Shown in pieces: positions 9,508-64,000 of a DNA stretch of 64,000 nucleotides. Source of the DNA: an uncultured bacterium. Lineage in GTDB: Bacteria; Abyssobacteria; SURF-5. A model generated the notes under the pieces. The model was not told the DNA's origin, ran no database searches, and saw nothing but the letters and a program-made list of their open reading frames with translations. Location of the stretch: assembly GCA_964607485.1 (NCBI GenBank), contig CAZSKP010000011.1, positions 1 to 64,000 of the forward strand, read 5' to 3'. Positions within the stretch are counted from its first letter, which is position 1. Each line of letters opens with the position of its first letter. Made by a program: the position numbers and the translations under genes.

Positions 9508-9530
9508 GATCAGCGCCTCCATTCCACAAA

Positions 9531-13009: not shown

Positions 13010-13018
13010 GTTCACATC

Positions 13019-13480: not shown

Positions 13481-13497
13481 CTTCTCTCATAATATAG

Positions 13498-13515
13498 TAT
13501 GGTACCCGTACCATA
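13498..13515. promoter_or_regulatory. Perfect inverted repeat, candidate MarR operator
   Basis: TATGGTAC-cc-GTACCATA between marR and the hydrolase gene. Confidence 0.55.
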
Positions 13516-13578
13516 ATGGGTGCGTTCAATAAGCATTTTGAAAAGGAAAATCCGTCGACTCAACGCGGAGGTGTGAAG

Positions 13579-15911: not shown

Positions 15912-16826
15912 ATGTCTAAATATCTTGAACAAATCAACCAACTATACTCTGCAGCTTGCACGCCCCTTCGGTCAAGCGGTGTTTCTGAGAGAGCGCTTGA
16001 CTTTAGAGCTCCGCACATAAGAGGCAGGCGACCCGGTGATGCCCGGTCGGAGTTTCTTGCCAACAGAGCTATGGGCGACTGGGCAGAGAATGCCCTAGCT
16101 GCTTCTCTCAACGAAGCCTTAAGACCGTTGAAAATAGTCAAATATGGAAATGCAGATGACATTGTTGCGGGAGACCCGGCATTCCCAGATTTTTTTGACA
16201 ATTATCATGCCGAACTGGCAGCTTCGGGCAAACGCCCCGATCTACTGGCATTCTCCCACAATATGGAGGGGTTAGGTCCGTCTTTGGATATCAGTGCCCG
16301 CCCATGGAAAGACCTTCCCCGCCTTGCGAGAAAGGCGCTTGTCGCAATAGAAACTCGCTCGAGCAAGTACTTCGCGCTTGAATATTCTGAGATTAGAAAA
16401 CGACAAGCAAGGCTGAATCCCAAATTTAAAGGAAGGATGTCTCAGAGTTTCACTCCGAAGGTAGAAGACCTCAAACTGGTAATGCGCTGGATTAACGTGC
16501 ACGAAGTTAGACATTACTACGCCCAAGTCTTCTTCGACAGTGTCTTCCTCATCAGTTTCAAGAGGATTTTGGAAATTCTGGCCACAGGTGATGCCTCACA
16601 TGAAATTGAAAGAAACAGAAACAACCAAGACAAACCAACCATTCACATACCTGTAACCGAAGGTGCCCATATTGGCGTGTTTGCTGAAGCGCCAACATTC
16701 GAAGCCGAAATCCGAAAAACTGATTTGGCCAGGTTGGACGCCTATGTTGTTCCTAAGGGGGGTCGGTTGGTTTTGAAGGAAGAAAAAGTCAGGGAAACCC
16801 TTCAGCTTGGCCAGGATACTACTTAA
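15912..16826 (+). CDS. Type II restriction endonuclease, AccI family
   Basis: SEFLANR..GDWAE, YG..DDIVAGD, GKRPDLL, E.RSS, SFTPKVEDL, QVFFD; lies between C and M genes. Confidence 0.8.
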   Translation: MSKYLEQINQLYSAACTPLRSSGVSERALDFRAPHIRGRRPGDARSEFLANRAMGDWAENALAASLNEALRPLKIVKYGNADDIVAGDPAFPDFFDNYHAELAASGKRPDLLAFSHNMEGLGPSLDISARPWKDLPRLARKALVAIETRSSKYFALEYSEIRKRQARLNPKFKGRMSQSFTPKVEDLKLVMRWINVHEVRHYYAQVFFDSVFLISFKRILEILATGDASHEIERNRNNQDKPTIHIPVTEGAHIGVFAEAPTFEAEIRKTDLARLDAYVVPKGGRLVLKEEKVRETLQLGQDTT

Positions 16827-18499
16827 ATCCCGCATATTTTTGCGACAACTTCGTCTAACTTTTTTAGGGCAACCTCTCGTCGGGAGTACCTGCGAAAATG
16901 CTCTTTGAGTTCTTGAACCAATGACTCTGACAGTTTGTCAAATTTGGGCACTGGTATTCTCATAACATCCTTCGGCTCGAGCTTCTTCAATCCGCCACCA
17001 TATACCCGCATTTGTTCTAAGAGAACCTCCTTGCAGTACGATGAGGTGAGATAGGCCATCATGGCGTCGATAAGATCCGGATTGAACTTCGGTCTTGCAT
17101 ACAGGCAGTGAAATGTGGTTAAGTTAAGAGCCTTTGTATAGTTTCGGATAAACCTGAATTCCTTTCTTCCAAACACTGTTACCCAGATTGGAGCCGGTTT
17201 TCTTTTTTCCATCGAATACCATGGGTCACGATGCCTAGTTAGAAATCTCTTGTGAAATTCCAGACTCTCTCCATACCGCAAATATGAAGAGACGGCCGGT
17301 TCTCTTTCGAAGCCTCTGACCACATCCAACAAGAATATTTTCTTATCCGTATCGATCAGCCTTGAAAGCTTTTCATCGTCGAACGTTACCCCGTCTATAT
17401 GCGCACTCTTTGTTACACATGTTCTAATGCATTCCCGTGGTAATTTATATTGTTCCACTTCGCGCCTAGACAAGGTAAAGTAAATATTTGCACCTGTCGC
17501 GATTCCCCTGCAAGACCTGAGGTAATCACCCAAAACTGCGCCGGGTGAACCAGAGTTTTCCCTTCCCACAGAATGCCATTTCCTCTCCACATCCAACTCT
17601 GTTAGAGGAATTTTGACGAACGCTTCTGTGTTACCTCTCTTGACGGATTCTGTTATGCGTTGCACATCTTTCATCTCATTCACATGAAAAACTTCAAGAC
17701 TCCTCCGTTTCCGTGCGCTCTTCTCTATCAGTGTAATACATGCAGTACTGAGTGACTCTCCGAAAACGTCCGTTGAGTGATCAAAAATCACCAGCGACCT
17801 AAGATATCCTTCATTTAACAAGAACCTCTTCAAAGCTACGCCGAAATCCGCATTCAGGAATTCGGCGGGAACTAAAATCGCGGCACGGCCGTCCTCCTTG
17901 AGTCGTTTGCATATCTCGATCATAAATAGACCGTATATGTTTGTCAGGCCAGAAAGGCGCTGCCCAATTAGCCGCGAGTAATGATTGAGCACTTCCTTAT
18001 CTAATTTTGCCACGTGATGACGTATGTATGGGGGATTGGCAATAACCGCGTCGAAACTCTTATTCTCTCTCCAGCAAAGAAAATCTCCGACTTCGAGATG
18101 AATGCTGATATTACCCCCCGTCTCACTTAATAGGTGCTTGGCCGCACTTATCATGGTAGGATCAATATCGATTCCTATCACTTCAAGAGAATATTTGTCC
18201 AAAGCCTCACGAGAGATCGCCCAAGGGAAGATCCCCAGACCGACAGAAGGATCCAAAATCTGCTTCGGTCTTCCCTTGAGGACCCATGCTGCCATGAGTA
18301 TCGCCACCTCAGGCGGTGTCAGAAACTGCCCAAGTCTTTTCCTCTTGCCAATATCCGACATCTTATTAAAAAGAGTAAGCGGTTTAGTCCAAGAGCCCTG
18401 AGCAGAGTTCGCTGGCGAAGCTTCTTCCGCCAAAATCCGTCCCCATTCTGCAGGCTTTGGAGATGTCTTCTTCTTACTGTCAAACAATTCCATTTGCAT
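16823..18499 (-). CDS. N6-adenine DNA methyltransferase (gamma class)
   Basis: GQFLTP, ILDPSVGLGIF, ANPPYIR, RGIATGAN, YGGGL.KLEP; start placed after the promoter. Confidence 0.9.
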   Translation of the reverse strand: MQMELFDSKKKTSPKPAEWGRILAEEASPANSAQGSWTKPLTLFNKMSDIGKRKRLGQFLTPPEVAILMAAWVLKGRPKQILDPSVGLGIFPWAISREALDKYSLEVIGIDIDPTMISAAKHLLSETGGNISIHLEVGDFLCWRENKSFDAVIANPPYIRHHVAKLDKEVLNHYSRLIGQRLSGLTNIYGLFMIEICKRLKEDGRAAILVPAEFLNADFGVALKRFLLNEGYLRSLVIFDHSTDVFGESLSTACITLIEKSARKRRSLEVFHVNEMKDVQRITESVKRGNTEAFVKIPLTELDVERKWHSVGRENSGSPGAVLGDYLRSCRGIATGANIYFTLSRREVEQYKLPRECIRTCVTKSAHIDGVTFDDEKLSRLIDTDKKIFLLDVVRGFEREPAVSSYLRYGESLEFHKRFLTRHRDPWYSMEKRKPAPIWVTVFGRKEFRFIRNYTKALNLTTFHCLYARPKFNPDLIDAMMAYLTSSYCKEVLLEQMRVYGGGLKKLEPKDVMRIPVPKFDKLSESLVQELKEHFRRYSRREVALKKLDEVVAKICGI

Positions 18500-18507
18500 G
18501 ATGCTTA

Positions 18508-18537
18508 AAAGTATCATATTCTGCCTATCATTGTCAA
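18508..18537 (-). promoter_or_regulatory. sigma70 promoter of the methylase
   Basis: Minus strand TTGACA-18 bp-TACTTT with extended TG. Confidence 0.55.
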
Positions 18538-18674
18538 GTACTTTTCTCACATCATCATTTCCGAGAGATTTTAAAAGGGAAATGTGCCGACTCGTTTGGC
18601 ACTGCTGTTGCCTTCGGGACAAGAGTGCCTCGCAGATTCGTCAAGGGACGAGCGACGTTCCGTACTCGCTTCCC

Positions 18675-42638: not shown

Positions 42639-42835
42639 CCGTGATTCATATCGGGCATCCGTCGGCCGGCCAATCTCTGATGTTGAGAGGGCTGGCCGTG
42701 GATCCCCGAAACGAGGGCCGAAGACCACTATAATGACTTGACAGATATGAAGTTAGGCACAAACATGAAACTCTCGGGCGAGGCCGGAATCGATGGGCCG
42801 GCCCCGGGCCGATTTGACGAAATTGAAATTGTTTT

Positions 42836-42863
42836 TTGTCTTTTCGGGAAAATGTGGTATAAT
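42836..42863 (+). promoter_or_regulatory. sigma70 promoter of the XRE gene
   Basis: TTGTCT-16 bp-TATAAT with extended TG and an AT-rich upstream tract. Confidence 0.65.
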
Positions 42864-42885
42864 GGACTGGACTGGAGGGGCTAAT

Positions 42886-43290
42886 ATGTCTATCGGTAAA
42901 ACGATCAGGAAGCGGCGCCAGGAAATTGGCATGAAAGCCAACGAATTGGCAAAGCGTATAGGTGTGAGTCAAAGCTTTCTGAGTAATATCGAGAACGACC
43001 TCAAGATACCCCGTTTCCTGCTCCTTCACAAAATCGCTCGCGAACTCAAGATGAGCCTGGCAGCTTTCGACGACATCGAGGGAGAAGGCAAGGGCTTCTC
43101 GGCAAAAGGAATAAAAGCCTCCGGACGCGAGCTCGCCATCCTTCGCGACAATGCGTTTGCACCCATGTTCGAGAAAGAGAGTCTGGGCAACCTTTCGGCT
43201 CTGGCAAAGAAAGAGCTCGCCGAATTCTACAGGGAAGTAAAGTCGATCGACAAGGAGAGAAGGAATCCGGACGGGACGCTGAAGGATTAG
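42886..43290 (+). CDS. XRE/Cro-CI HTH repressor (ImmR-like)
   Basis: IGKTIRKRR...ELAKRIGVSQSFLSNIEN; GGAGG RBS. Confidence 0.88.
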   Translation: MSIGKTIRKRRQEIGMKANELAKRIGVSQSFLSNIENDLKIPRFLLLHKIARELKMSLAAFDDIEGEGKGFSAKGIKASGRELAILRDNAFAPMFEKESLGNLSALAKKELAEFYREVKSIDKERRNPDGTLKD

Positions 43291-43314
43291 AGGAGACAGG
43301 CCGGAGGAGAGACA

Positions 43315-43857
43315 ATGCTCTACGACACCCTGGAGAAGCTGGAAAAGGAGACGGACTTCGGTTTCAACCAGCGACCGCTTGGTTACGGCGACTTCAAGCG
43401 TATCTGTAAGAAATATGAGATTTGCGTCAGAGAAAAACCGCTGTTGGGAGAACTCAAAGGAATCTTCACCTGGTACGAGACCAACCCTTATATTTGCATC
43501 AACTCACGGCTGCCGGAACGCGAGCGGACTTTTGTCTCGTTTTGCGAGCTCGGGCATTTTTTTCTGCATGACAAGAGCAACCACTTCTTCACCAAGATGC
43601 AGGACAAGTGGCAGCTGGGAGAGATGGAGTATCAGACGCGCGTATTCGCTTACCTGTGTATCGTTCCCACGTCCGACCTCGTGGAGATATTCACCGGGCG
43701 GAGAGGGTCGGGTAAGCCGATGAATTTTCGCTACCTCAGTGAACTGGCCGAGCTATACCATACGACCTTCCAGATTATCGATTCGCGGCTGCGTATTTTT
43801 TACGACTACATCTTTGTTCGCCCCGAGATCGTCGGCCGCAATGTGCCGTTGATGTAA
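43315..43857 (+). CDS. ImmA/IrrE (DUF955) metallopeptidase-like protein
   Basis: ICINSRL...R.FVSFCELGHFFLH...EYQT.VFA; follows the XRE gene. Confidence 0.8.
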   Translation: MLYDTLEKLEKETDFGFNQRPLGYGDFKRICKKYEICVREKPLLGELKGIFTWYETNPYICINSRLPERERTFVSFCELGHFFLHDKSNHFFTKMQDKWQLGEMEYQTRVFAYLCIVPTSDLVEIFTGRRGSGKPMNFRYLSELAELYHTTFQIIDSRLRIFYDYIFVRPEIVGRNVPLM

Positions 43858-52107: not shown

Positions 52108-53523
52108 TCACCTTATGTAATAAAAATACTCGCAGGTGACTTCCTTCGTCTCGCCGGCGCCCAGCACGAGGTTCCAGCGGATGACGCTGTGCCCGGTGAG
52201 AGCGCGACTACCGCGGAAGTCGCTCCAATCCTCGCCCACGAAATCACTCACCACGATGTTGCCCTCGTCCGACGCCTCGGTCGCATTCCCGCCAAGCTCG
52301 CAGGTGATCATCAACGGAACTGACTCGCTTTTATGATTGGTCACCTGCAACGTGCCCTTCTTCGCAATGCGGACATAGTCGTTCCCGTCGAAATGAATTG
52401 CCCCCGGCTCCCGAGCGACTTCTTCCTCTGTGTAAGTCCCGCGCACGTCAACGGCGACCGTCAGGGGTAACTGGCATTTGGCCCCGACCGAGGTGTACGT
52501 AAGGAGTTCCTGGGCGACTGGCAGATAGCCGTCCATCACCATAGCGGCGCCCGTCGTCCAGGGGACATCTGTCCTGTTGGTCAACTCGATCTGGTGCCAG
52601 ACCTCGTTCTTGAGCAGTCTGATGGGAGATGCATGCTTGCCCCTGCCGGGTATCGCCTCGGTCCCGGACCGACTCAACCGGACATCCCACGTGTAAATAT
52701 GGCGAAAAGGAACTCTGGTCGATACCAGAGGAATCGCCGCCCTCTCGCCCGCCCGGAGTGTGAGCCGGGGAACGTGGTAGAGGAAGAGGTCCTGAGAGCC
52801 TTCGCCGACCAGTTCCGGCGGCAGGGAGGGCACTCCCGGCGCGGGAGCCTCCGTTTCGGCCGGCTGTCCGCGAAACTCTCCCACGCGCTGAGATAACAGC
52901 ACGTTCGACATGGATTGGCTCATGAGCTGTGGCGCAGCCTGTTGAAGCGCATTCCTCAGCGTTGCCTCGAGACTCATGGGCGACACGACGTCCTTGAAGC
53001 GGAAATTCGGGACGCCGACGACGAGGTCTGCCGCGACGCCAGTTAGATCCTCCGCCTCGTTCAGGATTTCCGCCTGCATCGCCATATCGGCCTCGCCGCT
53101 CTCGTGCAGGGAAATCCGATAGGTGGGAATCCAGCGAACGCCCGGACCGAAGTGGAGCAGCGTGAGCTTCACCTCCCGGTCCGCTGCATCCGGGCCGAAC
53201 TCCAGCAGCAGACTCTTCTCGGTCTCCTGGCGGGCCTGTCTCGGAATAATCCGCTGCTTCGCGGTGATGCTGTTCAACTTCCCCGTTTCCGGTATGGCCC
53301 AAAAGGAGCCGAGCACCATCGAATCGGGAATGCCTTCAACGAGAGCATCTCCACCCTGGTCGGCTTTGCCGGAAGCCCGCTTGACGAACATACAATAACC
53401 GTCCTTGAAAACGATGACCCGGACAGTCTCCACATCCAGCGTTCCCGAGGGATACGCCTCTGCAAAAACAGTCGCCGTGAACAGAACCAGCGCCGTGACG
53501 ACAGAAGCCGTAAAGCGAACCAT
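52108..53523 (-). CDS. DUF4139-like secreted protein
   Basis: Signal peptide, V.VFKDG, RWIPTY.I, LVVGVPNF, W...L..GE. Confidence 0.65.
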   Translation of the reverse strand: MVRFTASVVTALVLFTATVFAEAYPSGTLDVETVRVIVFKDGYCMFVKRASGKADQGGDALVEGIPDSMVLGSFWAIPETGKLNSITAKQRIIPRQARQETEKSLLLEFGPDAADREVKLTLLHFGPGVRWIPTYRISLHESGEADMAMQAEILNEAEDLTGVAADLVVGVPNFRFKDVVSPMSLEATLRNALQQAAPQLMSQSMSNVLLSQRVGEFRGQPAETEAPAPGVPSLPPELVGEGSQDLFLYHVPRLTLRAGERAAIPLVSTRVPFRHIYTWDVRLSRSGTEAIPGRGKHASPIRLLKNEVWHQIELTNRTDVPWTTGAAMVMDGYLPVAQELLTYTSVGAKCQLPLTVAVDVRGTYTEEEVAREPGAIHFDGNDYVRIAKKGTLQVTNHKSESVPLMITCELGGNATEASDEGNIVVSDFVGEDWSDFRGSRALTGHSVIRWNLVLGAGETKEVTCEYFYYIR

Positions 53524-53797
53524 CTCTTGCCCCCCTGTTCAAGAACCGTCTGCTTCCCCGTTCGGACTCTCGCCTCCGTCCTTGGCAGATACACGTTACC
53601 ACCTTTCAGTCAATCAAGTCAATTGCACATCCGAAGGTGAAACCCCAATAAGCTCCACTCCACCAATTCCTTGCGCGGCTCGCTCGGACGATTAACAAAT
53701 AGTTCGTTGCTCGGGTATTTCGGCGCGTGGTATTCCATTCAACAGAGAATCGGGACAAACAAATCTCGCAGTCGATGTTGGTCAATAGGAGGAGCAG

Positions 53798-54595
53798 ATG
53801 GAAACGGTGAACAAGCCTCACGACAAGGTGGTTGAAAAATCGAATCATCCCGCGACGAGTCACACATTGGCGGACGATGGGACGCGCGAATCATTTCGTC
53901 AGACCGTCTTGACACCCGAGCAGGCGGCCAACATCAAGAGCTCGGTCGCAAGCGCAAGGCCGAGGCGCACGTTCAGGTTCCACATGAAGCTGGTCGAGTC
54001 GGACAAGTCCCGGCGTCAGATCGAGGGCTATGCCTCGACGCGCGACATCGACCGCACGGGCGAGATCGTCGAACCGGGCGCATTCGCGGACAGCCTCAAG
54101 TACTTCATGGCGAATCCGGTGCTTACCTACATGCACGACTGGAGCAACCCCATCGGCAAGGTGACCGACGTCCGTATCGACGATGTCGGCCTTTTCATCC
54201 GTGCCGAGATTTCCGAGACCGCGGAGAAAGTATGGAAGCTCATCGAAGAAGGCATCCTCCGCGCCTTCAGCATCGGCTACGAGGTCGTTGAGGAAAAGGT
54301 CTTCGCCGGAGTAAATCACATCTTGAAGCTCAGGCTCTATGAGGTCGCTGTCGTGAGCATACCCGCCAACCGGCGGGCGCTCTTTTCAGTGAGCAAGGCT
54401 CTCGAGACGGGAAACGACCTAGTGTATGAGCCTCTTGCCGACGTCACCCGTTCGGAGAAGCTCCAGCCAATACCGACCGGAGAGTATTCGTCGGTTTCCT
54501 CATTCTCCGAGACCGCGTTGAACGAAGCGCACGCCATCCTCAAGGAGGTGATGGAGAACTTGGGCGCCGATGGCGCCGCCAGCGGAAACTCCTGA
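53798..54595 (+). CDS. HK97-family prohead protease
   Basis: IEGYAST..IDR.GE, YMHD...PIGK, FSIGY, LYEVAVVSIPAN; AGGAGG RBS. Confidence 0.92.
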   Translation: METVNKPHDKVVEKSNHPATSHTLADDGTRESFRQTVLTPEQAANIKSSVASARPRRTFRFHMKLVESDKSRRQIEGYASTRDIDRTGEIVEPGAFADSLKYFMANPVLTYMHDWSNPIGKVTDVRIDDVGLFIRAEISETAEKVWKLIEEGILRAFSIGYEVVEEKVFAGVNHILKLRLYEVAVVSIPANRRALFSVSKALETGNDLVYEPLADVTRSEKLQPIPTGEYSSVSSFSETALNEAHAILKEVMENLGADGAASGNS

Positions 54596-54639
54596 CGGAA
54601 CAAACTTGTTGAAAGCTCGAATTGGACAGGGAGGAAACA

Positions 54640-55935
54640 ATGACAGACGTGAGAATGAAACCAGACAGAGAACTGCTTTCCCTCGTGCATGCCATCAAGG
54701 AAAAGGTGGACTCGGGCGCGCAGAGGGAACTCATCAGCTCGATGATACAGGATGCGCTCAAGCAGCAGAGACGCTCCTTCGGCGAGCGCATCTCGCGCAA
54801 GGGAGAGTACAGCCTGGATGCCGAGAGAGACCTGTTCGCGCGCCCGCGGCTTCCCGCCGAACTGCAGCGACGCTCCGATGACATCTACCTTGCCTCCAAA
54901 CTCCTTCGCCGCGACCCCCGCAGCCTGAAGATGTGGAGCGAGTTCGCGCGCGAGGCGTCGGCACTCCGCAAAGCGATGGACACCGCCACGTCCGAGGAAG
55001 GGCTTGAATGGATACCGACGGGATTCTCCGCCGAGCTCATCCAGAAGGTCAAGCTGGCTCTTAAGGTCGCCGCGCTTCATCAGCGAATCGCGATGCCGAC
55101 CAACCCGTTCAAGCTGCCCATCGACGGCGCCGACGCCACCGCCTATCTGTTCGGCGAATCGACCAGCGACACGGCCACCAAGATAACCGCCTCGACGCCC
55201 GGCACGAACAACGTCACTTTCGACGCTGTGAAGCTCGCCTGCCGCGTGCTCGCATCGACTGAGATGGAGGAAGACAGCGTCGTGGCCATCCTGCCGTTAT
55301 TGCGCGACAAGATCGTCCGCGCGCTGGCCGAGGCGCAAGAAAACGCGACCATAAACGGCGATACCGACGCCAACCACATGGACGGCGATGTCACATCCGC
55401 GACCGACGTCCGCAAAGCATGGGACGGTTACCGCAAGCTCGCCCTCAGCGCCGCCAAGGTGGACTGCAGCACGTTCGACAAGGCGAGCCTTCGCGCCATC
55501 CGCACCGCGATGGGCAAGTACGGCGTGAACCCGAACAACCTGGCGTGGGTCGCGGGCGTCAGCGTGTACAACAAGATGCTCGGCCTCGACGAGGTGATGA
55601 CGCTCGATAAGTACGGTCCGAACGCCACTATTCTCACGGGCGAGCTCGCGAAATTCGACGGCATTCCTGTCATAGTGAGCGAGTTTGTTCGCGAAGACCT
55701 CAACGCGAGCGGCGTGTACGACGGAATTACCACCGACGAGACCGTGCTGCCGCTGGTGTACCGGCCGGCGTTCCTGTACGGCGACCGCAGAAACATCACG
55801 CTGCGCGTGAGCCAGGAGTTGTACATGGAGACCGACCAGGACGTCGCGATTGCGACCCAGCGGCTGGATTTCCAGCCGGTGCAGGATGCGACCACCGAGA
55901 CGATAGTCGGTCTCGGATACAACATCGCATCGTAG
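54640..55935 (+). CDS. HK97-fold major capsid protein
   Basis: Helical N-terminal region, WIPTGFS, KLA....STEMEEDS, INGD, GIPVIVSEF; follows the protease. Confidence 0.9.
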   Translation: MTDVRMKPDRELLSLVHAIKEKVDSGAQRELISSMIQDALKQQRRSFGERISRKGEYSLDAERDLFARPRLPAELQRRSDDIYLASKLLRRDPRSLKMWSEFAREASALRKAMDTATSEEGLEWIPTGFSAELIQKVKLALKVAALHQRIAMPTNPFKLPIDGADATAYLFGESTSDTATKITASTPGTNNVTFDAVKLACRVLASTEMEEDSVVAILPLLRDKIVRALAEAQENATINGDTDANHMDGDVTSATDVRKAWDGYRKLALSAAKVDCSTFDKASLRAIRTAMGKYGVNPNNLAWVAGVSVYNKMLGLDEVMTLDKYGPNATILTGELAKFDGIPVIVSEFVREDLNASGVYDGITTDETVLPLVYRPAFLYGDRRNITLRVSQELYMETDQDVAIATQRLDFQPVQDATTETIVGLGYNIAS

Positions 55936-55945
55936 GAACCTGTCA

Positions 55946-55974
55946 GCGGGGGCGCGGGATGCCTGCGCCCCCGC
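55946..55974 (+). terminator. GC-rich hairpin after the capsid gene (attenuator or mRNA stabiliser)
   Basis: GCGGGGGCGCGGG-atg-CCTGCGCCCCCGC; no U tract. Confidence 0.5.
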
Positions 55975-56223
55975 AACCACCGCAGGCGTGAGTCCATTCG
56001 CAATCTGGTGCAAGGATGAAGCTGCAAACGACCTCTTACAGACGGCGGAGCAAACACGCGCCTTTGATATGCATGGAAATGGATAACTCAAACTAGGCCG
56101 ACGGCCCCACCCTCAAGGCACGCCTGCTCCGGGCGCGCAACAAGATAGCGCCACGAGGCAGAGAGAAAGACGCGCTGTCTTGAAGGAGCCGGACGCCGCC
56201 GGAGAGAGAAAGAGTGAACGCGC

Positions 56224-56781
56224 ATGGTTGACCTGACGACATTAGCAAAAGCGAAGGAGTATCTGGACATCGAATCCGACGACACCGAGTTCGATTCTCT
56301 TCTTGAAAGATTGATAACCGCATCGAGCCGTCAGATCGAAGCATACTGCAATAGAACGTTCGAGATACAGAGCTACTCCGAGGAGTACGACGGCAACGCG
56401 AGCGACATCCTGTTTCTCGACAACTCTCCCGTCATATCTGTCGCGACGCTTTCGATAGACGACGAAAGCATTCCAGCCGGGGATTTCAAGGTGTACGACG
56501 ATTACGTGAGGCTCGTCTCGCGGCTGTTCACTCCCGGAGAGCTCAATGTCTCCATCGAATACTCGGCCGGCTACTTCGACGCTCAAGCCGACTCGCCTCC
56601 CGCAGACATCGAGGACGCCTGCATACAACTCGTTGCGTTCAAATACAACCTGCGCGGAGCCGACGGCCTCTCGGAGAAACGCGTGAATCAGGTCACGGAC
56701 TCCTTCGCGGGAGTCGCCATATCGCTTTCGGTCGCGATCATCCTCGACAAGTACCGCCGGGCCAAACTGGGCGCAGTATAA
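56224..56781 (+). CDS. Head-tail connector / head completion protein (gp6-like)
   Basis: LTTLAKAKEYL, LITASS..IE.YCNR, EYSAGY, P.DIEDAC, LDKYRR. Confidence 0.85.
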   Translation: MVDLTTLAKAKEYLDIESDDTEFDSLLERLITASSRQIEAYCNRTFEIQSYSEEYDGNASDILFLDNSPVISVATLSIDDESIPAGDFKVYDDYVRLVSRLFTPGELNVSIEYSAGYFDAQADSPPADIEDACIQLVAFKYNLRGADGLSEKRVNQVTDSFAGVAISLSVAIILDKYRRAKLGAV

Positions 56782-56791
56782 CGACGGAGTC

Positions 56792-57172
56792 ATGCAGATG
56801 CCACACGTTCACTTGATATCGGGAACGAACTCGATGAGGCTCAGGGGCCTCGTGCATCCGAGCAAGGACGAGCTGGACCTCGGCCTTGCAACAGACGTGT
56901 CGGGAGGCGGCGAGGTCTATGTCAGCCAGAAGAGCGTGCCCTCTCTCACGCTTGTGCGTTCATTCGCCGGTGTACGAAACGAGGACTATGAATCTCTGAG
57001 GAGCTGGTACACGAACATATGCCAGGGCGCGCGCAATGCATTCATATTCATCGATGCCGACGGCTCGACATACACCGTCCGATGGACAAATAGTCCGCTG
57101 GACTGGCAGAGGGACGCGGAGAATCTATGGTCGGGGTCGATAACGCTACGCGTCGAAGATTTTGAACCCTAG
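56792..57172 (+). CDS. Small phage protein, possible distal-tail type
   Basis: L.SWY....G..NAFIFID.DG.TYTVRW...WSGSITL; sits just before the hub gene. Confidence 0.55.
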   Translation: MQMPHVHLISGTNSMRLRGLVHPSKDELDLGLATDVSGGGEVYVSQKSVPSLTLVRSFAGVRNEDYESLRSWYTNICQGARNAFIFIDADGSTYTVRWTNSPLDWQRDAENLWSGSITLRVEDFEP

Positions 57173-57196
57173 CGCTTCCAACAACGAGGAGAAGGA

Positions 57197-60100
57197 ATGA
57201 AGTCGCTCACAACCACAGCCGCAACGCAGTGCGCAAGCCGGTATAACGAGCCCGTCCTGCTGTTCGAGGTCGATTGGTCCGACACCGAAACGGGGCGCTA
57301 CGCCGATCGAACCGTGTCGGTCGAGGGAGTCGCATACACGGGCGTTGTCCTGCGGGTCGGTCCTATAGCGTGTTCCTTCGGTGAACCCGCGTCCGAGTTC
57401 CGCCCCGTCACGGTCACGCTCCTATTCGACGACGCGTTGCGCAGCAGGATTGCGGAGACGGTTCCGGAAGGAAAGTCCGCGCGCATAAAGCTCTTCTTCG
57501 TAGGCGGCACGGCCGCAGACGCGATCGAACTGTTCACCGGACACGTGGAGAAGCTGACCGCCGCGGGGCCGGACGCGGTCGAACTGACGCTCGCGGGATT
57601 CTTCAAGAGATACGACCGGATGCTGCCGGGCGACATCGTATCCTTGTCCGAATTTCCCAAGGCTCAGGCGGACGATGTCGGCAGGCCCATGCCGGTGGTG
57701 TTCGGCGACGTGCCCGAACTGCCGGCGCTGAAGGTGAAGACCGGTCGGAGCACCCGCCTGCGGGGCAGCATCTTGTCATCCGACACAACTATCGAAGCCG
57801 ACGAAACGGCCGGCTTCCCCGCTTCCGGCACCCTTCTGATCGAGGAGGAACAGGTCACCTACAGCGGCGTGAGCGAGAACGTCTTCACGGGCTGCACGCG
57901 GGGCGCGAACGACACCGAGGCGGTAGACCACTTGAACCGTCGCGAAGTGATCGAGTACATGACGGAACACATCTATCTCGTGGCGGGGCACGCGTGTAAG
58001 GCGGCGGACGACGTCAGGGTGGCCGGCGTGCCTGTGGAACAGGGCGCATGTGCGATCAACCGGAACAACACGGCGTTGGTTCCGGGCAAATCTCTCACGA
58101 CCATCACGTTCGTGAACCGTCCCAAGGTGCGCAGCTACTCGCGCGGGTCGCGTTTCTTGGAAGTCCAGTTCGACGAGACGGCGGCGGGCAACGAAGCGAT
58201 CAACCCCGATTATTGTTACGACGCCTCGCTTGAAGGATTTGCGACACTTGTCTCCAAAATCTCCGGAGCATCCAATAATGACACCCTTCGGATCAAGCAG
58301 ACAACCGATGTCTCGGGATACGAGACCAAGTACGGCGAGATTCTGAAGGCTTTCCTCATGGTTGAGCACTTCGAGAGCACGACCTTCACCGACGACTATC
58401 TGAGCGTGCAAATCGCAGGGCAGAGTTGCAACCTCGCGAAGCCGAGCGAGGAGGACACCGCCGGCGGTGAGGGTGAGGTGGACATCGACCACGGACACAC
58501 ACACTCGATCACGGGCGAACACAGTCACACGATGACCGTCAAGAAGGAAGCCGTTTTCACGAATAACATAGTCCAAACCGGCGGCTCCACGGGCGGCTGG
58601 GCAGAGCTGAACGACATCGCCGGGACCAACCTCAATCGCAGCGGCTTCACCACAAGCGCGGATACAGACAAGAGTCTGCAGTGTTTCGTTGCGGCCACAA
58701 CCTCAAAGGGAAGCGTTCAGAAAATCCAATTCTGCTGTCGGCGGGGCGAAACCAATATGGCGGGCTCATTCTACTTGCGATTCTACCGCAATGGCTCGCT
58801 GGAGAAGACGTACTATGTCAGCGGCACTTCCACTCCTCAGACTTTCAAGTCGGGCTGGGAAACGATCAGCGGATTGACCTGGGAGGACCTGGACAATGCG
58901 AACACCTATGTTCTGATAACGCCTGCCTCCGGAAATTCTCAGGTAATTCGGTTGTTCGGGGTATGGTACGAACTGGAATACCTGGAGCAGCCCGACACCT
59001 ATGAGGGCTCGGGCGTGAAGGATTCCGCCGACGTGAACGACCACTCGGGCACAAACGCCCATGTCATCAACGAAGAGCCGATAAGCTCGACCTCCGTTGT
59101 GGAAGGCATCGACATAACCGACCTCGTGGCCAAAGATTGGATCTGGTTTAACAACCGCGAGGTTTGGGTCGATTACAACATCGCCGGCTCCGACGACGGC
59201 GTCACAGGGTACGTTCTCCATGTCTTTTTCGAGGTCGAGTATGCGCCGTTCGAGGAGATAGTGAGCGATGAGGTCACGTGCAGGGTCGAAGGAATCGAAA
59301 CCAGCGGCAACGGCGATGGTGACCTAATCGAAAATCCAGCCGACGTCGTCAGGCACACAATGGTAAGCCTCCTCGGGTTCGACGAAGATGCACATATCGA
59401 CGCGGACTCGTTTGCGGCGACGCGAGAGAGTCTTGAGACTACCGGAGCACGTTTTGCGTTTGCGCTTTTCGACCAGGAGAAAGCTTCGGACCTCATCAGC
59501 ACGCTGTCAGAGCAGAGCCGAAGCCGGCTGAGCTTCGATTCGGGGAGATTTCGGCTGGTCTATCGGCCGGATTCACTCGGCGAACCCGCGCGTGTGATCT
59601 CACCGAGTTCCCTCCTTGCCGGTTCGCCGAGAGTTCAGCACATGGGACTCGAAAGTGTGTTCAACGAGGTTATCGGCTACCACTCCCGCGATTACTCGAA
59701 GCGCGGGAGCATTCCCGACAGATACTCCGATTTTTCGCTCGCCGAAAACGCGCAGAGCCAGGCCGCATATGGGATGCGGGAGTCGAGGCTCGAGCTTTTT
59801 GCCATCAGCGACGCCGAATACGTCCAGGAGCTTCTGGATTTTCTGGCTGCTCGTTATGCCGATCCGGTGCGCAGATATGTGTGGAAGTCGCTGTTGCGCG
59901 ATGTTGACCTCGAGAGGGGCGACATCGCCGAAATATGTGACTTGGAAATGAACCTCTTCAAGGTCAAGGGAGAAATTGTGGAATCGACGTTTCTCGGCGG
60001 CAGCGGCATCAACCGTGAGTTCGACACCATCGCTTTCGCAGCTGAGCTGGAACCATATGCCCTGTACTGGTCGGTTCCGGCTGGCGCGTTCATCCGGTTG

Positions 60101-60505
60101 ATCGAAGACACGTTCTTCTTCATAGTCCAGCGCGAGCTCGTGGCGCGCCTCACATCGGACGGGGTGTTCTACATCAAGGGTTTCGTGATAAGCGACCAGG
60201 CGTTTCCGGCGGCGACGGCGCATCCGCTCTCCTACGATTCCGACCGCGAGAGCATAGCCTTCGCGCTTTCGGACAATACGCGCGTCATGGAGCTCGACAA
60301 CGATGGCAACATTCTGCTCCCCTTGACCCAGGAGGGCGACCAGGAGCTGACGTTTTCGGGCTCGGCTGATGAGATCGATTCAGATGGCTCAACACTCTGG
60401 TTCAATGTTGGCTCCGAACGCGCGGCCGAAGTTACATCGGCAGGACTCCTGATGCTCCCGAAATACATCGTCGAAAATTGCTCATGGGAAGGCCTCTACG
60501 GATAA
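57197..60505 (+). CDS. Phage tail-tip/hub protein with fibre-like insert
   Basis: N-terminal P.LLFEV..RYAD, PVVFG, IENPAD, SQAAYG.RE, LERGD; HxH motifs. Confidence 0.7.
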   Translation: MKSLTTTAATQCASRYNEPVLLFEVDWSDTETGRYADRTVSVEGVAYTGVVLRVGPIACSFGEPASEFRPVTVTLLFDDALRSRIAETVPEGKSARIKLFFVGGTAADAIELFTGHVEKLTAAGPDAVELTLAGFFKRYDRMLPGDIVSLSEFPKAQADDVGRPMPVVFGDVPELPALKVKTGRSTRLRGSILSSDTTIEADETAGFPASGTLLIEEEQVTYSGVSENVFTGCTRGANDTEAVDHLNRREVIEYMTEHIYLVAGHACKAADDVRVAGVPVEQGACAINRNNTALVPGKSLTTITFVNRPKVRSYSRGSRFLEVQFDETAAGNEAINPDYCYDASLEGFATLVSKISGASNNDTLRIKQTTDVSGYETKYGEILKAFLMVEHFESTTFTDDYLSVQIAGQSCNLAKPSEEDTAGGEGEVDIDHGHTHSITGEHSHTMTVKKEAVFTNNIVQTGGSTGGWAELNDIAGTNLNRSGFTTSADTDKSLQCFVAATTSKGSVQKIQFCCRRGETNMAGSFYLRFYRNGSLEKTYYVSGTSTPQTFKSGWETISGLTWEDLDNANTYVLITPASGNSQVIRLFGVWYELEYLEQPDTYEGSGVKDSADVNDHSGTNAHVINEEPISSTSVVEGIDITDLVAKDWIWFNNREVWVDYNIAGSDDGVTGYVLHVFFEVEYAPFEEIVSDEVTCRVEGIETSGNGDGDLIENPADVVRHTMVSLLGFDEDAHIDADSFAATRESLETTGARFAFALFDQEKASDLISTLSEQSRSRLSFDSGRFRLVYRPDSLGEPARVISPSSLLAGSPRVQHMGLESVFNEVIGYHSRDYSKRGSIPDRYSDFSLAENAQSQAAYGMRESRLELFAISDAEYVQELLDFLAARYADPVRRYVWKSLLRDVDLERGDIAEICDLEMNLFKVKGEIVESTFLGGSGINREFDTIAFAAELEPYALYWSVPAGAFIRLIEDTFFFIVQRELVARLTSDGVFYIKGFVISDQAFPAATAHPLSYDSDRESIAFALSDNTRVMELDNDGNILLPLTQEGDQELTFSGSADEIDSDGSTLWFNVGSERAAEVTSAGLLMLPKYIVENCSWEGLYG

Positions 60506-60515
60506 GGGGGAAAAG

Positions 60516-62564
60516 GTGAAAAGGATAAAAGGGAAAAATGGAACTATTCGCGTTTCTGCATGGACGGCGCTCCTCGTCATCCTCTGTGTCCTCTGTGGCT
60601 CTTTGATTCTCTCGGGCACAACCGACCTCGCCAATATGGCCGCGATCGCAGCGGCTTACAACTTCTACGCCACAACCGATGTGAGCGCGGGCGACGTGGT
60701 CGTATGGGATTCCACCACCGCCTATGGCGTCAAAACGACTATCGTCGAGGGAGCGAATACGGTCGCGGGCGTCGCCACGGAAACGGTCAGTGCGGGCAAT
60801 GACTGCACGATCAGGCAAGACGGCGGCCGGGTGGCCGTCAATATCACGGGCACGGTCACGAAGGGTCAGTGGCTTATCACTTCGACTACGACGGGAAAAG
60901 CGAAGGGCGTGGACACCCTTCAGGCTGGGATATTCGCCCGGGCGATCGCTGATGCAGGCACGCCCGCCGCCGGGCAGGTCTATGCCAGCGTGGATATGGG
61001 CTACCTCGGCTACATCACGGGGGGTACGGGCGAGGCAAATACCGCTTCGAATCAGGGTGCGGGCGGCGTCGGCCCGTTCGACACAAAATCGGGCGTGGAC
61101 CTCCAGTTCCGCAACCTGAACGCCGGGAGCAGCAGGGTTTCGGTCACGCTCGATTCGGGCAACAAGGAAATCGATGTCGATGTCAACGAGGGAAACATCG
61201 CTCACAACAATCTCTCCGGCGCGGGCACGAATAGCCATGCGCAGATAGACTCCCACATCGCCGACGCCGGCAAGCATCGCGAGATAAACGATTCCGGCAC
61301 CGGCACGACCGACCTCTGGAGCGCCGACAAGATCAATGCGGAGCTCGCGGGCAAGAGCGACACCGGGCATTCCCACACCGAGAGCGACATCACCGACCTT
61401 GACCACGACGCGCAGAAGGTCAAGGGCAAGTCGTTCGACGATACGGGCCTGGCCGACGGAAAGATTTGGAAGTACGACTCAGCCTCTCAGACATGGAAGA
61501 TAGCAGACGATGCCGGCGCCGCCAGCGGCGAGGCCAACACCGCCTCAAACCTCGGAGCGGGCGTTGGCGTGTTTGAGCAGAAATCCGGCGTGGACCTCCA
61601 GTTCAACAGCCTCGTCGCCGGAAGCACAAAGCTGTCCATCTCCGAAGATGACCCCAACGACGAGATTGACATAGACGTCGTTGAGGGCAACATCGCTCAC
61701 CAGAACCTCTCGGGAGCGGGCACGAATACGCACGCGCAGATAGACACCCACATCGCCGACGCCGGGAAGCACCGCGAGATAAACGATTCCGGCACGGGGT
61801 CAACGGAACTCTGGAGCGCGAATAAAATAAGCACCGAGCTTGCGGGTAAGCTCGGCACAGTCGAAGAAGAGGACGGCAGCCCGTCAGACTCCGCCGTCAC
61901 AGTCATCAAGGTCCCCAACAATTCCCTCGACAACCCGAGCGCGGGGACGGTCAGCATCAATCCGTGGGATATCGCGGAAGGAGTTCGCTTCTACGATGAC
62001 TTCCTGGGCGGCAACAACGTCTATTGGACGACCTCTACTACCGGCACGGGCGCAGCCGTGGCGCTCGAAGCGGACACTCCAAACGGCGTCTGCTCCCTGG
62101 CCTCCGGCACAGACGCCGGGGCGAAGGCGTCCATTAAGCTCGGGGATGGCAAAAATAATCTGAGGGGCTCTCAGAACGCCGTCGTCGAATTCTACGCGAA
62201 GGCGGATAGTCTCACCGACAATAACGAGGTGGAGATGGGCGGATGGAATTCGACGGACGGAGACTATTTCTTCTTCTGGGCCTCGGCTACCACAAACAGC
62301 GGTAAATGGGTAGCCCTCACCGCCAACAATTCTTCCTATGAAACCACAAACATCGACAGCACAATAAACACATGGCGGCACTTCAAAATCGAGCTGACCT
62401 CTTCATCCGTGAAGTACTACATAGACGGGTCGCTCGTGGCGACGCATACGACCTATGTGCCCGATGCGGGAATGGACTTATTTTGTCAATCAAGCCAGAG
62501 CACAGGCGCGGGCACGAGTTACAAACTATACATCGACAGTGTTCTGTTCACTCAAGACAGATAG
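60516..62564 (+). CDS. Fibre-like protein: export leader, DUF2190-like domain, repeats, ConA/LamG-like tip
   Basis: Basic + hydrophobic N-terminus; AGDVV..GVA.E..AG; duplicated repeat; WRHFKIE....VKYYIDGSLV. Confidence 0.7.
   Translation: MKRIKGKNGTIRVSAWTALLVILCVLCGSLILSGTTDLANMAAIAAAYNFYATTDVSAGDVVVWDSTTAYGVKTTIVEGANTVAGVATETVSAGNDCTIRQDGGRVAVNITGTVTKGQWLITSTTTGKAKGVDTLQAGIFARAIADAGTPAAGQVYASVDMGYLGYITGGTGEANTASNQGAGGVGPFDTKSGVDLQFRNLNAGSSRVSVTLDSGNKEIDVDVNEGNIAHNNLSGAGTNSHAQIDSHIADAGKHREINDSGTGTTDLWSADKINAELAGKSDTGHSHTESDITDLDHDAQKVKGKSFDDTGLADGKIWKYDSASQTWKIADDAGAASGEANTASNLGAGVGVFEQKSGVDLQFNSLVAGSTKLSISEDDPNDEIDIDVVEGNIAHQNLSGAGTNTHAQIDTHIADAGKHREINDSGTGSTELWSANKISTELAGKLGTVEEEDGSPSDSAVTVIKVPNNSLDNPSAGTVSINPWDIAEGVRFYDDFLGGNNVYWTTSTTGTGAAVALEADTPNGVCSLASGTDAGAKASIKLGDGKNNLRGSQNAVVEFYAKADSLTDNNEVEMGGWNSTDGDYFFFWASATTNSGKWVALTANNSSYETTNIDSTINTWRHFKIELTSSSVKYYIDGSLVATHTTYVPDAGMDLFCQSSQSTGAGTSYKLYIDSVLFTQDR
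61029..61850 (+). repeat. Intragenic duplication: 61029-61355 and 61527-61850
   Basis: Both copies read GEANTASN...KSGVDLQF...EGNIAH.NLSGAGTN.HAQID.HIADAGKHREINDSGTG...LWSA.KI..ELAGK. Confidence 0.95.
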
Positions 62565-62576
62565 GAGGTATCAGCG

Positions 62577-63050
62577 ATGAAAAGGAGAATCCTTGCTATA
62601 GCGCTTGCTTTCAGCATGGCGGCAGTTGGCCCGGCATGGGCGGCCTTAGAAATATTGAGCGTCTCGAAGCCGGTTCCGAACGCGGAGTGTCAGACGGCGA
62701 CAGGTAAGGTGACCGCAGTAGGAATAGAGCTTCGGCTCTCAAAAGGCGCGGGCGATACCTACACTCTCACGATCCCCGCGTGGAATCCCGATACCCTCGA
62801 ACCATGGACAAAGGGGGAGCTGAACATCTATATCACCGCCCACTCCGTGCATTACGAAGAGGTGGCCGTCCCAGAACCCGAACCTGACCTCACACTGTTT
62901 GATGGCTACACCATGGACACACCCACGATGAAGGCTTTTGTGAAGCTGCTCATCAAGGAGATAAACATCCTCCGCGCAAGCCACGGCCTGCCTGACCGCA
63001 CATGGGAGCAGTTCATGACCGCCCTGCGCGTTGAACTCGAAGAGGAATGA
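62577..63050 (+). CDS. Hypothetical protein with Sec signal peptide
   Basis: GGAGGT RBS; MKRRILAIALAFSMAAVGPAWA-A. Confidence 0.75.
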   Translation: MKRRILAIALAFSMAAVGPAWAALEILSVSKPVPNAECQTATGKVTAVGIELRLSKGAGDTYTLTIPAWNPDTLEPWTKGELNIYITAHSVHYEEVAVPEPEPDLTLFDGYTMDTPTMKAFVKLLIKEINILRASHGLPDRTWEQFMTALRVELEEE

Positions 63051-63089
63051 GCAATACTACGAGTAAGGAAGGACAGGATTGAAGCGAAT

Positions 63090-63320
63090 ATGCCAAACGG
63101 CGACTGTCCAATAGGAGCGGCTCATGCACAACAGATACGTTTGCTCGAGGACAGCATCGAGCGCCACGACCGCTGTCTGTCGCAAAAGGCGGAGGCCGCG
63201 AGCCTCGAAAGGATAGAAGCCAAGGTGGACAAGATAAGCAACATGTTCTGGGCGTTGATCATGCTCATTGTCGCAAATCTCGTCGGGATCATCCTGATGC
63301 TCTTGAGAGCACGGCTATGA
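63090..63320 (+). CDS. Small coiled-coil + C-terminal TM protein (XhlA/holin-like)
   Basis: Heptad region then MFWALIMLIVANLVGIILMLL. Confidence 0.6.
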   Translation: MPNGDCPIGAAHAQQIRLLEDSIERHDRCLSQKAEAASLERIEAKVDKISNMFWALIMLIVANLVGIILMLLRARL

Positions 63321-63493
63321 AGGGCGAGAGATTCTACGACGTCATCAATCGATTGTGGTACAGGCTGCTCTGGTGCGAGGAGCTCGGCTGTTACGTGTGG
63401 ACTCTCGAGGAAGGGCAGCGTTCGCTCTTGATAAATACGGATTCCGAGAAGGAGGTGGGACACGATGGGATTCAACACGAAGAAGGCGGTTGA
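63317..63493 (+). CDS. 58-aa hypothetical protein (not in the ORF track)
   Basis: ATGA overlap with the previous stop; MKGERFYDVINRLWYRLLWCEELGCYVW... Confidence 0.45.
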   Translation: MKGERFYDVINRLWYRLLWCEELGCYVWTLEEGQRSLLINTDSEKEVGHDGIQHEEGG

Positions 63494-63695
63494 GAAAGGC
63501 TTTCAGGCATTGGAGACGACCGGCCCGGCTTCGGCCGTAGGGGCGATAGTAGGGTACGGGCTACCCGGCTCGGTGAAGGAGTTGCAGGGCCAGGAGGAAG
63601 TCGTCGCAGCGGTGACGACGACCCTTTTTTCCATAATCTTCAACATGGTTCGCAACTGGTGGAAGCATCGTCACGAACTGCAGGTGAGCAAGTGA
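63465..63695 (+). CDS. Holin-like small membrane protein
   Basis: AAGGAGGT RBS; two hydrophobic stretches, basic tail RNWWKHR; precedes the lysin. Confidence 0.55.
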   Translation: MGFNTKKAVEKGFQALETTGPASAVGAIVGYGLPGSVKELQGQEEVVAAVTTTLFSIIFNMVRNWWKHRHELQVSK

Positions 63696-63749
63696 GCGGG
63701 TGACTCCTTCGGAGCTGTACCCCTCTCTTGAACGGAAAGGTCCACAGGG

Positions 63750-64000
63750 ATGCTGAAAGCGAGACTCAGCGCGCTGCCGTTGAGATTCAAGACCGCGAGG
63801 CAGCGCCGAGAATTCGATTCCACAAACGTTCGTCCGGAGCTGGTGTGGATGGTGAGCTTCCTCGCCCTCTGGATTTTCTGGAGGCACAGACGTATTCCGG
63901 AGATAACCGAGATCTACCGGACCGACGAGGAACAGCGCGCGTTGTACCCCGACGAGCCCGGGAGGAAATCGGTTCATCAATTCTGGCGCGGCTGCGACAT
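63750..64000 (+). CDS. Peptidase M15-type endolysin, runs off the window (not in the ORF track)
   Basis: My translation: MLKARL...ITEIYRTDEEQRALYPDEPGRKSVHQFWRGCD; R..EEQ..LY and SxHxxxxxxD zinc motif. Confidence 0.7.
   Translation, partial: MLKARLSALPLRFKTARQRREFDSTNVRPELVWMVSFLALWIFWRHRRIPEITEIYRTDEEQRALYPDEPGRKSVHQFWRGCD

Follow-up and report, generated by a model that had tools for sequence, protein, structure and literature searches.

Two adjacent genes near the 3' end of a 64,000-nucleotide stretch of DNA from an uncultured bacterium (GTDB lineage Bacteria; Abyssobacteria; SURF-5; GenBank assembly GCA_964607485.1, contig CAZSKP010000011.1, positions 1 to 64,000 of the forward strand; hereafter the window) encode a fibre-like protein of 682 residues read from a GTG start (60516-62564, +) and a protein of 157 residues (62577-63050, +). 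They belong to a tightly packed run of same-strand genes (53798-64000, +), four of which could be named by family searches, within a phage-type structural and lysis module of ~11-11.5 kb. The module spans 53645-64000 in the window and ~2900-14683 in a related locus, L001, which occupies a whole 18-kb contig. L001 and a shorter locus, L002, were recovered by scanning genome contigs with a 12-sequence alignment, and at least two loci were confirmed among 600 pattern matches. The original prediction, made from the letters of the window, had assigned export leaders to both the fibre and the 157-residue protein. Both leaders were found, and the hydrophobic run of the fibre contains the string that had been quoted. 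Judged from these sequence features, both proteins are very probably exported from the cytoplasm.

The fibre leader depends on the choice of start codon. GTG 60516 lies 11 nucleotides after the upstream stop with AAGGGGG placed 5 nucleotides before it, whereas no purine-rich or Shine-Dalgarno-like site precedes the in-frame ATG at 60636. When the DNA of the two loci is aligned, GTG 60516 stands opposite the ATG with which the L001 homologue begins, and that homologue has a GAGGTGA site of its own. The public gene call for the fibre (P0001, 642 residues) starts at ATG 60636 and carries no leader. Because a ribosome-binding site is present at the GTG only, the L001 start aligns with it and the leader is kept in relatives, we read P0001 as truncated and take GTG 60516 to be the true start. 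If instead ATG 60636 were the true start, or if dual starts provided a leaderless isoform for the virion, the fibre part of the export argument would fall. The database record itself speaks for such a reading, as does Met41, which stands just ahead of the folded domain and has in-frame counterparts in L001/P0025, P0039 and P0125. A start at 60636 would, however, leave 130 nucleotides of open frame idle in a tightly packed operon; most relatives have no internal Met, and the leader is in frame in 27 of the 27 closest ones. It would also leave unexplained the leader of the 157-residue protein, whose only plausible start precedes that leader. We consider this alternative most improbable. The original prediction had allowed for a true start at ATG 60636 together with leaderless homologues; the ribosome-binding site and the L001 alignment favour GTG 60516 instead.

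The fibre leader (residues 1-45; 60516-60650, +) comprises a basic n-region with a net charge of +5, an uncharged hydrophobic run at residues 13-36 and a short helix ending in AIA↓AAY. AlphaFold2 (AF2) modelling places helices at residues 15-32 and 38-48. The n- and h-regions fit those of a Sec signal, and small-x-small sites follow residue 34 (LSG↓TTD) and residue 45 (AIA↓AAY). A crude leader rule, asking for a hydrophobic, uncharged run together with a positively charged n-region and a site of the small-x-small type, detected N-terminal leaders in only 2 of the 12 open reading frames (ORFs) of the module, namely the fibre and the 157-residue protein. Under the same rule, five of five host envelope proteins encoded in the window were positive (a SurA-like protein, a 471-residue protein, HtrA, PepX and BatD) and none of five cytoplasmic proteins was (GroEL, GroES, GlnD, an amidase and MoxR).

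Other types of signal fit less well. Lipoprotein signals end their h-region with a lipobox of the pattern [LVI][ASTVI][GAS]C, and neither protein has one; the G-P-C sequence of many fibre relatives has Pro at position -1, and P0047 (IVAC) is a possible lipobox exception. For Tat export, the fibre leader has no twin arginine; the 157-residue protein contains KRRILA, but its relatives P0122, P0216 and P0217 lack the RR. A prepilin-type motif was not seen by eye. An explanation in terms of disulfide formation was also set aside, Cys97 of the fibre being kept in the close clade without a consistent partner.

The leader of the 157-residue protein (residues 1-22; 62577-62642) matches the n/h/c pattern of Sec signals cleaved by signal peptidase I: MKRR, a hydrophobic core and AWA↓A after residue 22, with an n-region charge of +3 and an uncharged run at residues 5-24. 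Its ATG lies 12 nucleotides after the fibre stop and has GGAGGT 7 nucleotides before it. The family is small, with two proteins among 48 candidates and four among 1,060 by profile, and all four members (the window protein, P0122, P0216 and P0217) bear the leader, with PAWA↓A or an equivalent site; P0217 is the weakest member, with 24% of the query aligned at E 7.6e-4. The AF2 model, built on a four-sequence alignment, is poor (pLDDT, the predicted local confidence, 56.4; above 80 only at residues ~120-150) and gives the mature part as a small beta unit followed by a C-terminal helical hairpin. No family match was obtained in Pfam, PHROGs, NCBIfam, PADLOC or the PDB, and XkdW at 0.76 in the Atlas was treated as a lead only and not used as evidence. 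Given that the gene co-varies with the fibre tip (see below), its product may be an accessory or partner of the fibre. The description of the pair as virion-module proteins was therefore borne out in one respect, both genes lying in a phage structural and lysis module; no evidence was found that the 157-residue protein is part of a virion.

We then placed the fibre leader among its relatives. Queried with the whole fibre, a word-indexed search scored 7,999 candidates, of which 407 proteins reached E ≤ 0.001 and 120 were listed; an exhaustive search with residues 1-170 gave 108 representatives at E ≤ 0.001. In the pooled set, phmmer located the base domain that follows the leader (residues 47-165) in 115 sequences, the window protein being counted twice. 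A basic and hydrophobic stretch lies directly ahead of the domain in 36 of the 115; the domain is at the very N-terminus in nine (P0001 and eight others), follows an extension without a hydrophobic stretch at the threshold used in 66, and follows a long region with a hydrophobic stretch somewhere in it in the remaining four. The leader is present in all 27 relatives whose base domain scores E ≤ 4e-27, a cut chosen after the data were seen; 25 of these pass the hydrophobicity threshold, the leader of P0124 being weaker and P0049 being truncated inside it. The next tier (E 4e-26 to 3e-22) contains five leaderless proteins (P0133-P0136 and P0138) and three with a leader (P0132, P0128 and P0137). 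Thus the expectation that homologues keep their leaders was confirmed for the closest fibre relatives (27/27) as for the 157-residue family (4/4).

The sequence and length of the relatives' leaders vary freely, while charge, hydrophobicity and the small-x-small site before the domain are kept; short textbook leaders are found in P0047, P0036, P0005, P0132, P0137, P0139 and P0141, and P0005 is labelled Candidatus Abyssobacteria. A stricter rule retained N-terminal leaders in 29 of the 119 listed fibre relatives, 17 with the base domain and 12 without it; base-domain proteins that failed this rule were P0006 (a long upstream extension), P0043 (an n-region of net charge 0) and the truncated P0049. 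In the subfamily P0133-P0138, five proteins start at the domain (MA or MS, then the first strand) and P0137 has a textbook signal peptide before it, suggesting that the leader is readily gained or lost. By these alignments, the clade of leader-bearing fibres with a capsid-type anchor has at least 35 members in addition to the window protein.

The base domain itself (residues 46-165; 60651-61010, +) is predicted to be beta-rich and to share the fold of capsid decoration proteins and head-fibre bases. The AF2 model, covering residues 1-175 and using a 31-sequence alignment, has a mean pLDDT of 87.3, rising to 97-98 over residues 51-160. Foldseek comparison with the PDB gave nine matches at E ≤ 0.001, and every one is to a chain of a capsid decoration, cement or head-fibre protein. 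They include chains of HFTV1 (8qsy; E 3.8e-6, template-modelling (TM) score 0.71 on the target) and the base of the phi29 head fibre gp8.5 (6qyy; E 1.9e-5, TM 0.71), as well as the cyanophage Pam3 capsid unit (8hdt), the phi29 prohead (6qvk) and entry 5wk1. In BFVD, 79 matches at E ≤ 0.001 included DUF2190 and head fibre proteins, and also pre-neck appendage and tail proteins. Sequence searches with the domain found no match in Pfam (residues 1-170, even at E ≤ 10), PHROGs or NCBIfam, DUF2190 appearing only as a structural neighbour in BFVD, and tblastn with the fibre N-terminus found none in 50,697 phage records. The modelled fold identifies the domain as a virion anchor of the decoration or head-fibre type, and attachment to the capsid is our best guess for its role.

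Beyond the base, the fibre has two tandem repeats of ~150 residues (residues 171-323 and 337-487; 61026-61976, +) that are identical at 92 of 151 positions (61%) in self-alignment. The repeat motif is common to hundreds of fibre-like proteins, some of which carry tailspike beta-helix domains; a match to the PTR repeat is weak (18.5 bits against a cut-off of 27). The C-terminal tip (residues 536-675; 62121-62540, +) is a putative ConA/LamG-like lectin domain, scored as Laminin_G_3 at E 4.2e-6 and 27.4 bits against a gathering cut-off of 27.6, and P0001 bears a precomputed PF13385 label. LamG-like tips also occur in P0002, P0003, P0005, P0006 and P0009. Head fibre is a better name for the protein than tail fibre, because its anchoring domain is modelled with the capsid-decoration/head-fibre-base fold, although that fold occurs in appendage proteins too. 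No other fibre gene was found in the module.

Upstream of the fibre lie recognizable head genes. A prohead serine protease of the S78/HK97 type (53798-54595, +; PF04586 at 5.6e-19, TIGR01543 at 4.4e-21, phrog_80) is followed by an HK97-fold major capsid protein (54622-55935, +; PF05065 at 3.1e-17, TIGR01554 at 2.5e-23) that is 83% identical to the L001 copy, with a ratio of nonsynonymous to synonymous substitution rates (dN/dS) of 0.12. In tblastn against the same phage records, the best match of the capsid protein to isolated phages is T5-like at ~25% identity. Then come a gp6-like head-tail adaptor (56224-56781, +; PF05135 at 3.3e-10, phrog_442 at 3.1e-35) and a conserved protein of 126 residues (56792-57172, +) that is 58% identical to counterparts at the same position in L001 and L002 (dN/dS 0.19) and that matched no family when compared with Pfam (up to E ≤ 10 as well), PHROGs, NCBIfam and PADLOC. 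The gene before the fibre encodes a putative tail protein of 1102 residues, nozzle- or hub-like (57197-60505, +; 70% identity to L001, dN/dS 0.11). Only a ~60-residue domain of it (residues 183-253) is common to phage 'tail tube B' and baseplate proteins; the rest has no tblastn match among those records. Its viral neighbours in the Atlas, with Phage-tail_3 in 27% of one cluster, were again a lead only, not evidence.

Downstream of the 157-residue gene is a lysis cassette. It begins with a 76-residue protein, coiled-coil-like at its N-terminus and with a membrane helix at its C-terminus (63090-63320, +; 76% identity to L001 12940-13170, dN/dS 0.09) and continues with a second 76-residue membrane protein, holin-like by position (63465-63695, +; 76% identity to L001 13247-13459); neither small membrane protein matches a family in Pfam, PHROGs, NCBIfam or PADLOC. 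Between the two sits a 58-residue ORF (63317-63493) that L001, with a gap of only ~77 nucleotides there, does not have; this ORF is perhaps spurious, perhaps a peculiarity of the window. The last ORF (63750-64000, +) extends past the window end and encodes the beginning of a putative peptidoglycan peptidase of the LAS type (M15-like). An H-x6-D stretch lies in the window and the L001 homologue goes on to H-x-H, a combination of motifs, unscored here, that we take to mark an LAS/M15-type wall peptidase; no Pfam or NCBIfam match was found for this ORF. Its N-terminus is a poor candidate for a signal-arrest-release domain, since its hydrophobic run does not begin before residue 31 and the L001 counterpart has a weaker one.

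The left edge of the module is marked by a conserved non-coding block (53645-53797, +; L001 2897-2990) that starts ~150 nucleotides 5' of the protease gene and forms the limit of homology between the window and L001; identity rises from ~0.3 to 0.6-0.73 at window ~53670-53730 (L001 ~2927-2990). The block may be a promoter, operator or other regulatory region of the module, and in L001 it contains a TTGACA-like hexamer, yet it was missed by a consensus promoter scan. Scanning for promoters and terminators gave nothing above chance between the fibre gene, the 157-residue gene and their packed neighbours, and PDB sequence searches gave chance rows only.

Comparison with the related loci showed which parts of the module are constant. 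L001 has the gene order of the window: protease, capsid, a 124-residue ORF, adaptor, 126-residue protein, a 1103-residue protein and a leader-bearing fibre, followed by a 416-residue protein with a textbook leader (VWA↓Q), a 76-residue membrane protein, the holin-like protein, the peptidase and a 174-residue protein. L002 (8 kb, with a run of N) preserves the adaptor, the 126-residue protein, the large protein as two ORFs and the leader-bearing fibre. The homologue of the 1102-residue protein in L002 is divided between ORFs 1658-3109 and 3232-4983 (483 and 583 residues), and the N run falls in its fibre. Between window 60516-63050 and L001 9970-12868 a cassette appears to have been swapped: the fibres are 62% identical over residues 1-184, that is, leader and base, and unrelated beyond residue 184. 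The genes 3' of the fibre are likewise unrelated (E 1.4), yet both encode a Sec-type leader, such that a second leader-bearing protein follows the fibre at both loci with a readable next gene (the window and L001). The 157-residue family member P0216 and the LamG-tipped fibre P0003 are each on a contig of 4,949 nucleotides, presumably the same one. Other relatives with the same leader and base have different tips, for example beta-helix/pectate-lyase domains (PF12708, PF13229). On these comparisons, a constant anchor with a variable tip and an accessory gene follows the logic typical of phage receptor-binding modules.

The module is not the late region of a normal prophage. No portal, terminase, integrase or replication genes were found at the window or L001 locus, host genes flank both, and neither flanking direct repeats nor tRNA genes marking an integration site were found. 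A functional tailed prophage was rejected on these grounds, the portal, terminase, integrase and replication genes not being with the structural module. In the window, genes for GroES/EL, a SurA-like chaperone and the secreted 471-residue protein lie 5' of the protease, up to ~150 nucleotides from the module; L001 has an alkyl-sulfatase gene on one side and DUF4013, M48 peptidase, nitroreductase and AP-endonuclease-2-type genes on the other, and beyond the conserved block the host genes of the two loci are unrelated. The 471-residue protein (52108-53523, -) has a signal peptide and no family match, adjoins the module upstream and is absent from the L001 position; it is probably a host gene. 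The host would be diderm, because SurA-like, HtrA and BatD genes are present in the window.

Further upstream, a pair of genes for an HTH_3 regulator and an ImmA/IrrE-type M78 peptidase lies at 42793-43857, ~10 kb 5' of the module, with host genes for transporters and chaperonins in between; such pairs are common in mobile elements. At 16001-18622 the GC fraction falls to 0.46, against ~0.58; this stretch, where an Eco57I-type restriction-modification methylase is encoded (16823-18622, -), is probably an island gained by horizontal transfer.

Despite the missing genes, each of the eight window genes set against its L001 counterpart is under purifying selection, with dN/dS of 0.05-0.24, values that are qualitative only since synonymous sites are near saturation. 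The substitution pattern indicates a module that is maintained rather than decaying, which could be a domesticated system, multilocus and akin to a gene transfer agent (GTA), or a helper-dependent one. A GTA packages and transfers random host DNA and has structural genes maintained by selection in the host genome. Of these features, purifying selection is seen; packaging would be conjectural, and terminase and portal are missing at the loci.

We propose that the fibre and its neighbour are exported through Sec to the periplasm and that the fibre then docks on finished capsids at lysis, a reading to which we assign a probability of about 0.4. Both genes would be translated from the late operon of a phage-derived module of ~11 kb, and their products would cross the cytoplasmic membrane unfolded via Sec. 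Signal peptidase I would probably free them, at AWA↓A in the 157-residue protein and at AIA↓AAY, or less likely LSG↓TTD, in the fibre. The fibre would then fold in the periplasm, possibly aided by the co-exported 157-residue protein, which would be a cognate partner or assembly factor that changes with the fibre tip. Capsids would meanwhile be built in the cytoplasm, because the capsid proteins have no leader, and the two pools would be kept apart until the envelope is opened by the holin-like protein and the peptidase encoded downstream, whereupon the base domain would dock on the mature capsid. Docking after lysis is much less certain than export. It is plausible because, in a review (PMC7602432), decoration proteins are described as binding mostly in the last stages of assembly or after it, and Dec as binding expanded heads in vitro; several decoration proteins are also said there to mediate attachment to carbohydrates.

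Several observations weigh against this reading, and those closest to the leader bring in a different fate for the fibre. AIA↓AAY comes 9-11 residues after the end of the hydrophobic run, a long stretch for a c-region. The linker in between, DLANxxAIAAAY (60615-60656, residues ~34-47), is conserved, as the c-regions of cleaved signal peptides usually are not. G-P-C precedes it in many relatives (P0025, P0026, P0027, P0034, P0043, P0077, P0124, P0125, P0127 and P0128; not in the window), and in P0143, P0177 and P0131 the linker is longer and charged, with no good cleavage site near the membrane. Taken at the sequence level, these features fit an uncleaved anchor with a juxtamembrane helix as well as they fit a cleaved leader. 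The fibre might accordingly be a type II membrane protein held by residues ~13-36, the DLANxxAIAAAY helix (the second AF2 helix) being a functional juxtamembrane element and the base domain, beside the membrane, catching capsids or vesicles at lysis. Against such an anchor, a small-x-small motif stands right before the domain in nearly all members, often within a short cleavable leader. The leaderless cousins P0133-P0136 and P0138, whose existence also counts against a conserved export route, begin exactly at the domain, and it can be argued from this that the domain works without a tether. We regard permanent anchoring as improbable.

The remaining difficulties concern the particle. The base fold also anchors tail appendages and occurs in proteins with no assigned role, leaving capsid attachment unproven; neither locus has a portal or terminase, and therefore the production of DNA-filled particles is unproven too. 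In addition, the report on WceF (PMC7949094) describes a complete tailspike kept by a host, including the virion-binding head domain, that is an exported enzyme outside virions. WceF is thus a solved precedent for a rather different view of the fibre, namely that it and its small neighbour are exported and never enter a particle, acting on the envelope or surface glycans of the producer as an adhesin, as a factor that masks or destroys receptors and so spares progeny from debris, or as a release aid. The fibre and the 157-residue protein would then form a functional unit with the envelope and lysis genes immediately downstream. All genes from 60516 to 63695 are indeed envelope-targeted (two with Sec leaders and two or three encoding small membrane proteins), with the peptidase next. 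Receptor-binding genes likewise have neighbours with exported products in the case of T5 Llp and phi80-type Cor. The depolymerase-type beta-helix domains noted above are joined to the same leader and base in relatives, and the 12 of 119 listed repeat relatives that have a leader without the base domain suggest that the repeat is often extracellular. The missing portal and terminase fit this view as well. On the other hand, the leader clade keeps its base domain at 55-80% identity, and the nearest structural relatives of that domain are all capsid-borne; a constant anchor with a variable tip is the pattern of virion receptor-binding proteins. The fibre is, moreover, the only fibre gene of the module, and it is translationally packed into the structural operon, unlike a set-apart moron. 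We consider a purely envelope role, the main alternative, somewhat less likely and prefer export followed by docking at lysis. A more specific form of the preferred reading, in which a selected module lacking portal and terminase secretes its sole fibre and the partner through Sec and joins them to capsids at lysis, as an undescribed GTA-like or helper-dependent system, is unlikely.

Were the fibres to reach the virion, a virion component could take an extracytoplasmic route, capsid decoration could be delayed until lysis and phage adhesins might exploit periplasmic folding. Were they to stay off it, genes of a phage module would act on the producer envelope and yet keep a capsid-type anchor. 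In either case, automatic start calling hid the leader in P0001, and such signals may be under-counted in viromes. The portal-less module of ~11 kb, kept under selection, may represent a new particle system, either domesticated or dependent on a helper.

Virions of tailed phages are taken to assemble wholly in the cytoplasm, and exported phage products include morons, lysis and exclusion proteins and filamentous-phage coat proteins. The leaders found here are as unusual as the original prediction held them to be: the literature searched contains no described case of a Sec-exported tailed-phage decoration, head-fibre or tail-fibre protein, which is not proof of absence, and the proposed extracytoplasmic route would be novel and without precedent. 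The closest structural comparison is with phi29 gp8.5, the CSP proteins of HFTV1 and TW1 and the Pam3 cement protein, which share the N-terminal base fold (Foldseek E 4e-6 to 4e-3, TM 0.5-0.7). As in phi29 gp8.5 and other beta-tulip decoration proteins, an elongated distal part follows the base. The distal part here consists of repeats and a lectin-like tip, however, with no helical supercoil, and the fibre has no sequence-family match to the beta-tulip proteins. Capsid binding, which in that group is by trimers at (quasi-)threefold sites of the mature capsid, is predicted from the fold. No signal peptide is described for known beta-tulip members, and the decoration-protein review has 0 occurrences of the word 'signal' (PMC7602432).

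The nearest parallel for export is WceF of Pantoea stewartii, which, like the fibre, combines a receptor-binding architecture and a virion-anchor-like N-terminal domain with an export signal, and which shows that such proteins can fold after export (PMC7949094). WceF has a Tat signal and lies in an exopolysaccharide biosynthesis cluster (PMC7949094), whereas the fibre has a Sec-type leader and lies in a capsid/tail/lysis module, and the P22-tailspike-like anchor and beta-helix body of WceF differ from the domains found here.

The 157-residue gene can be compared with two groups of phage genes. Its position next to the fibre gene resembles that of the T5 Llp, phi80/N15-type Cor and lambda Lom genes, which encode signal-bearing proteins beside fibre or receptor-binding genes. 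Llp and Cor are lipoproteins, whereas the 157-residue protein has no lipobox, and its gene, with its own Shine-Dalgarno site so close behind the fibre stop in a late operon, is not moron-like. Assembly or chaperone genes of the lambda Tfa and T4 gp38 type lie directly 3' of the fibre gene and encode cytoplasmic proteins. The 157-residue gene likewise lies 3' of the fibre and co-varies with its tip, but differs from them in its cleavable-type leader and in having no family match.

As a whole, the module can be compared with the Rhodobacter capsulatus gene transfer agent (RcGTA), with which it shares a phage-derived structural and lysis cluster, the absence of replication and integration genes, host flanks and purifying selection. 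The main RcGTA cluster contains terminase and portal genes, which are missing from the locus here; DNA packaging would be conjectural for the present module, and its capsid protein is only ~25% identical to those of isolated phages. RcGTA also has head spikes, and some of its genes are at other loci, according to two reports (PMC5026251, PMC10218006). Set against these systems, the sequence evidence describes the fibre as a protein of the decoration or head-fibre type that has acquired a conserved export signal, in an unusual portal-less module.

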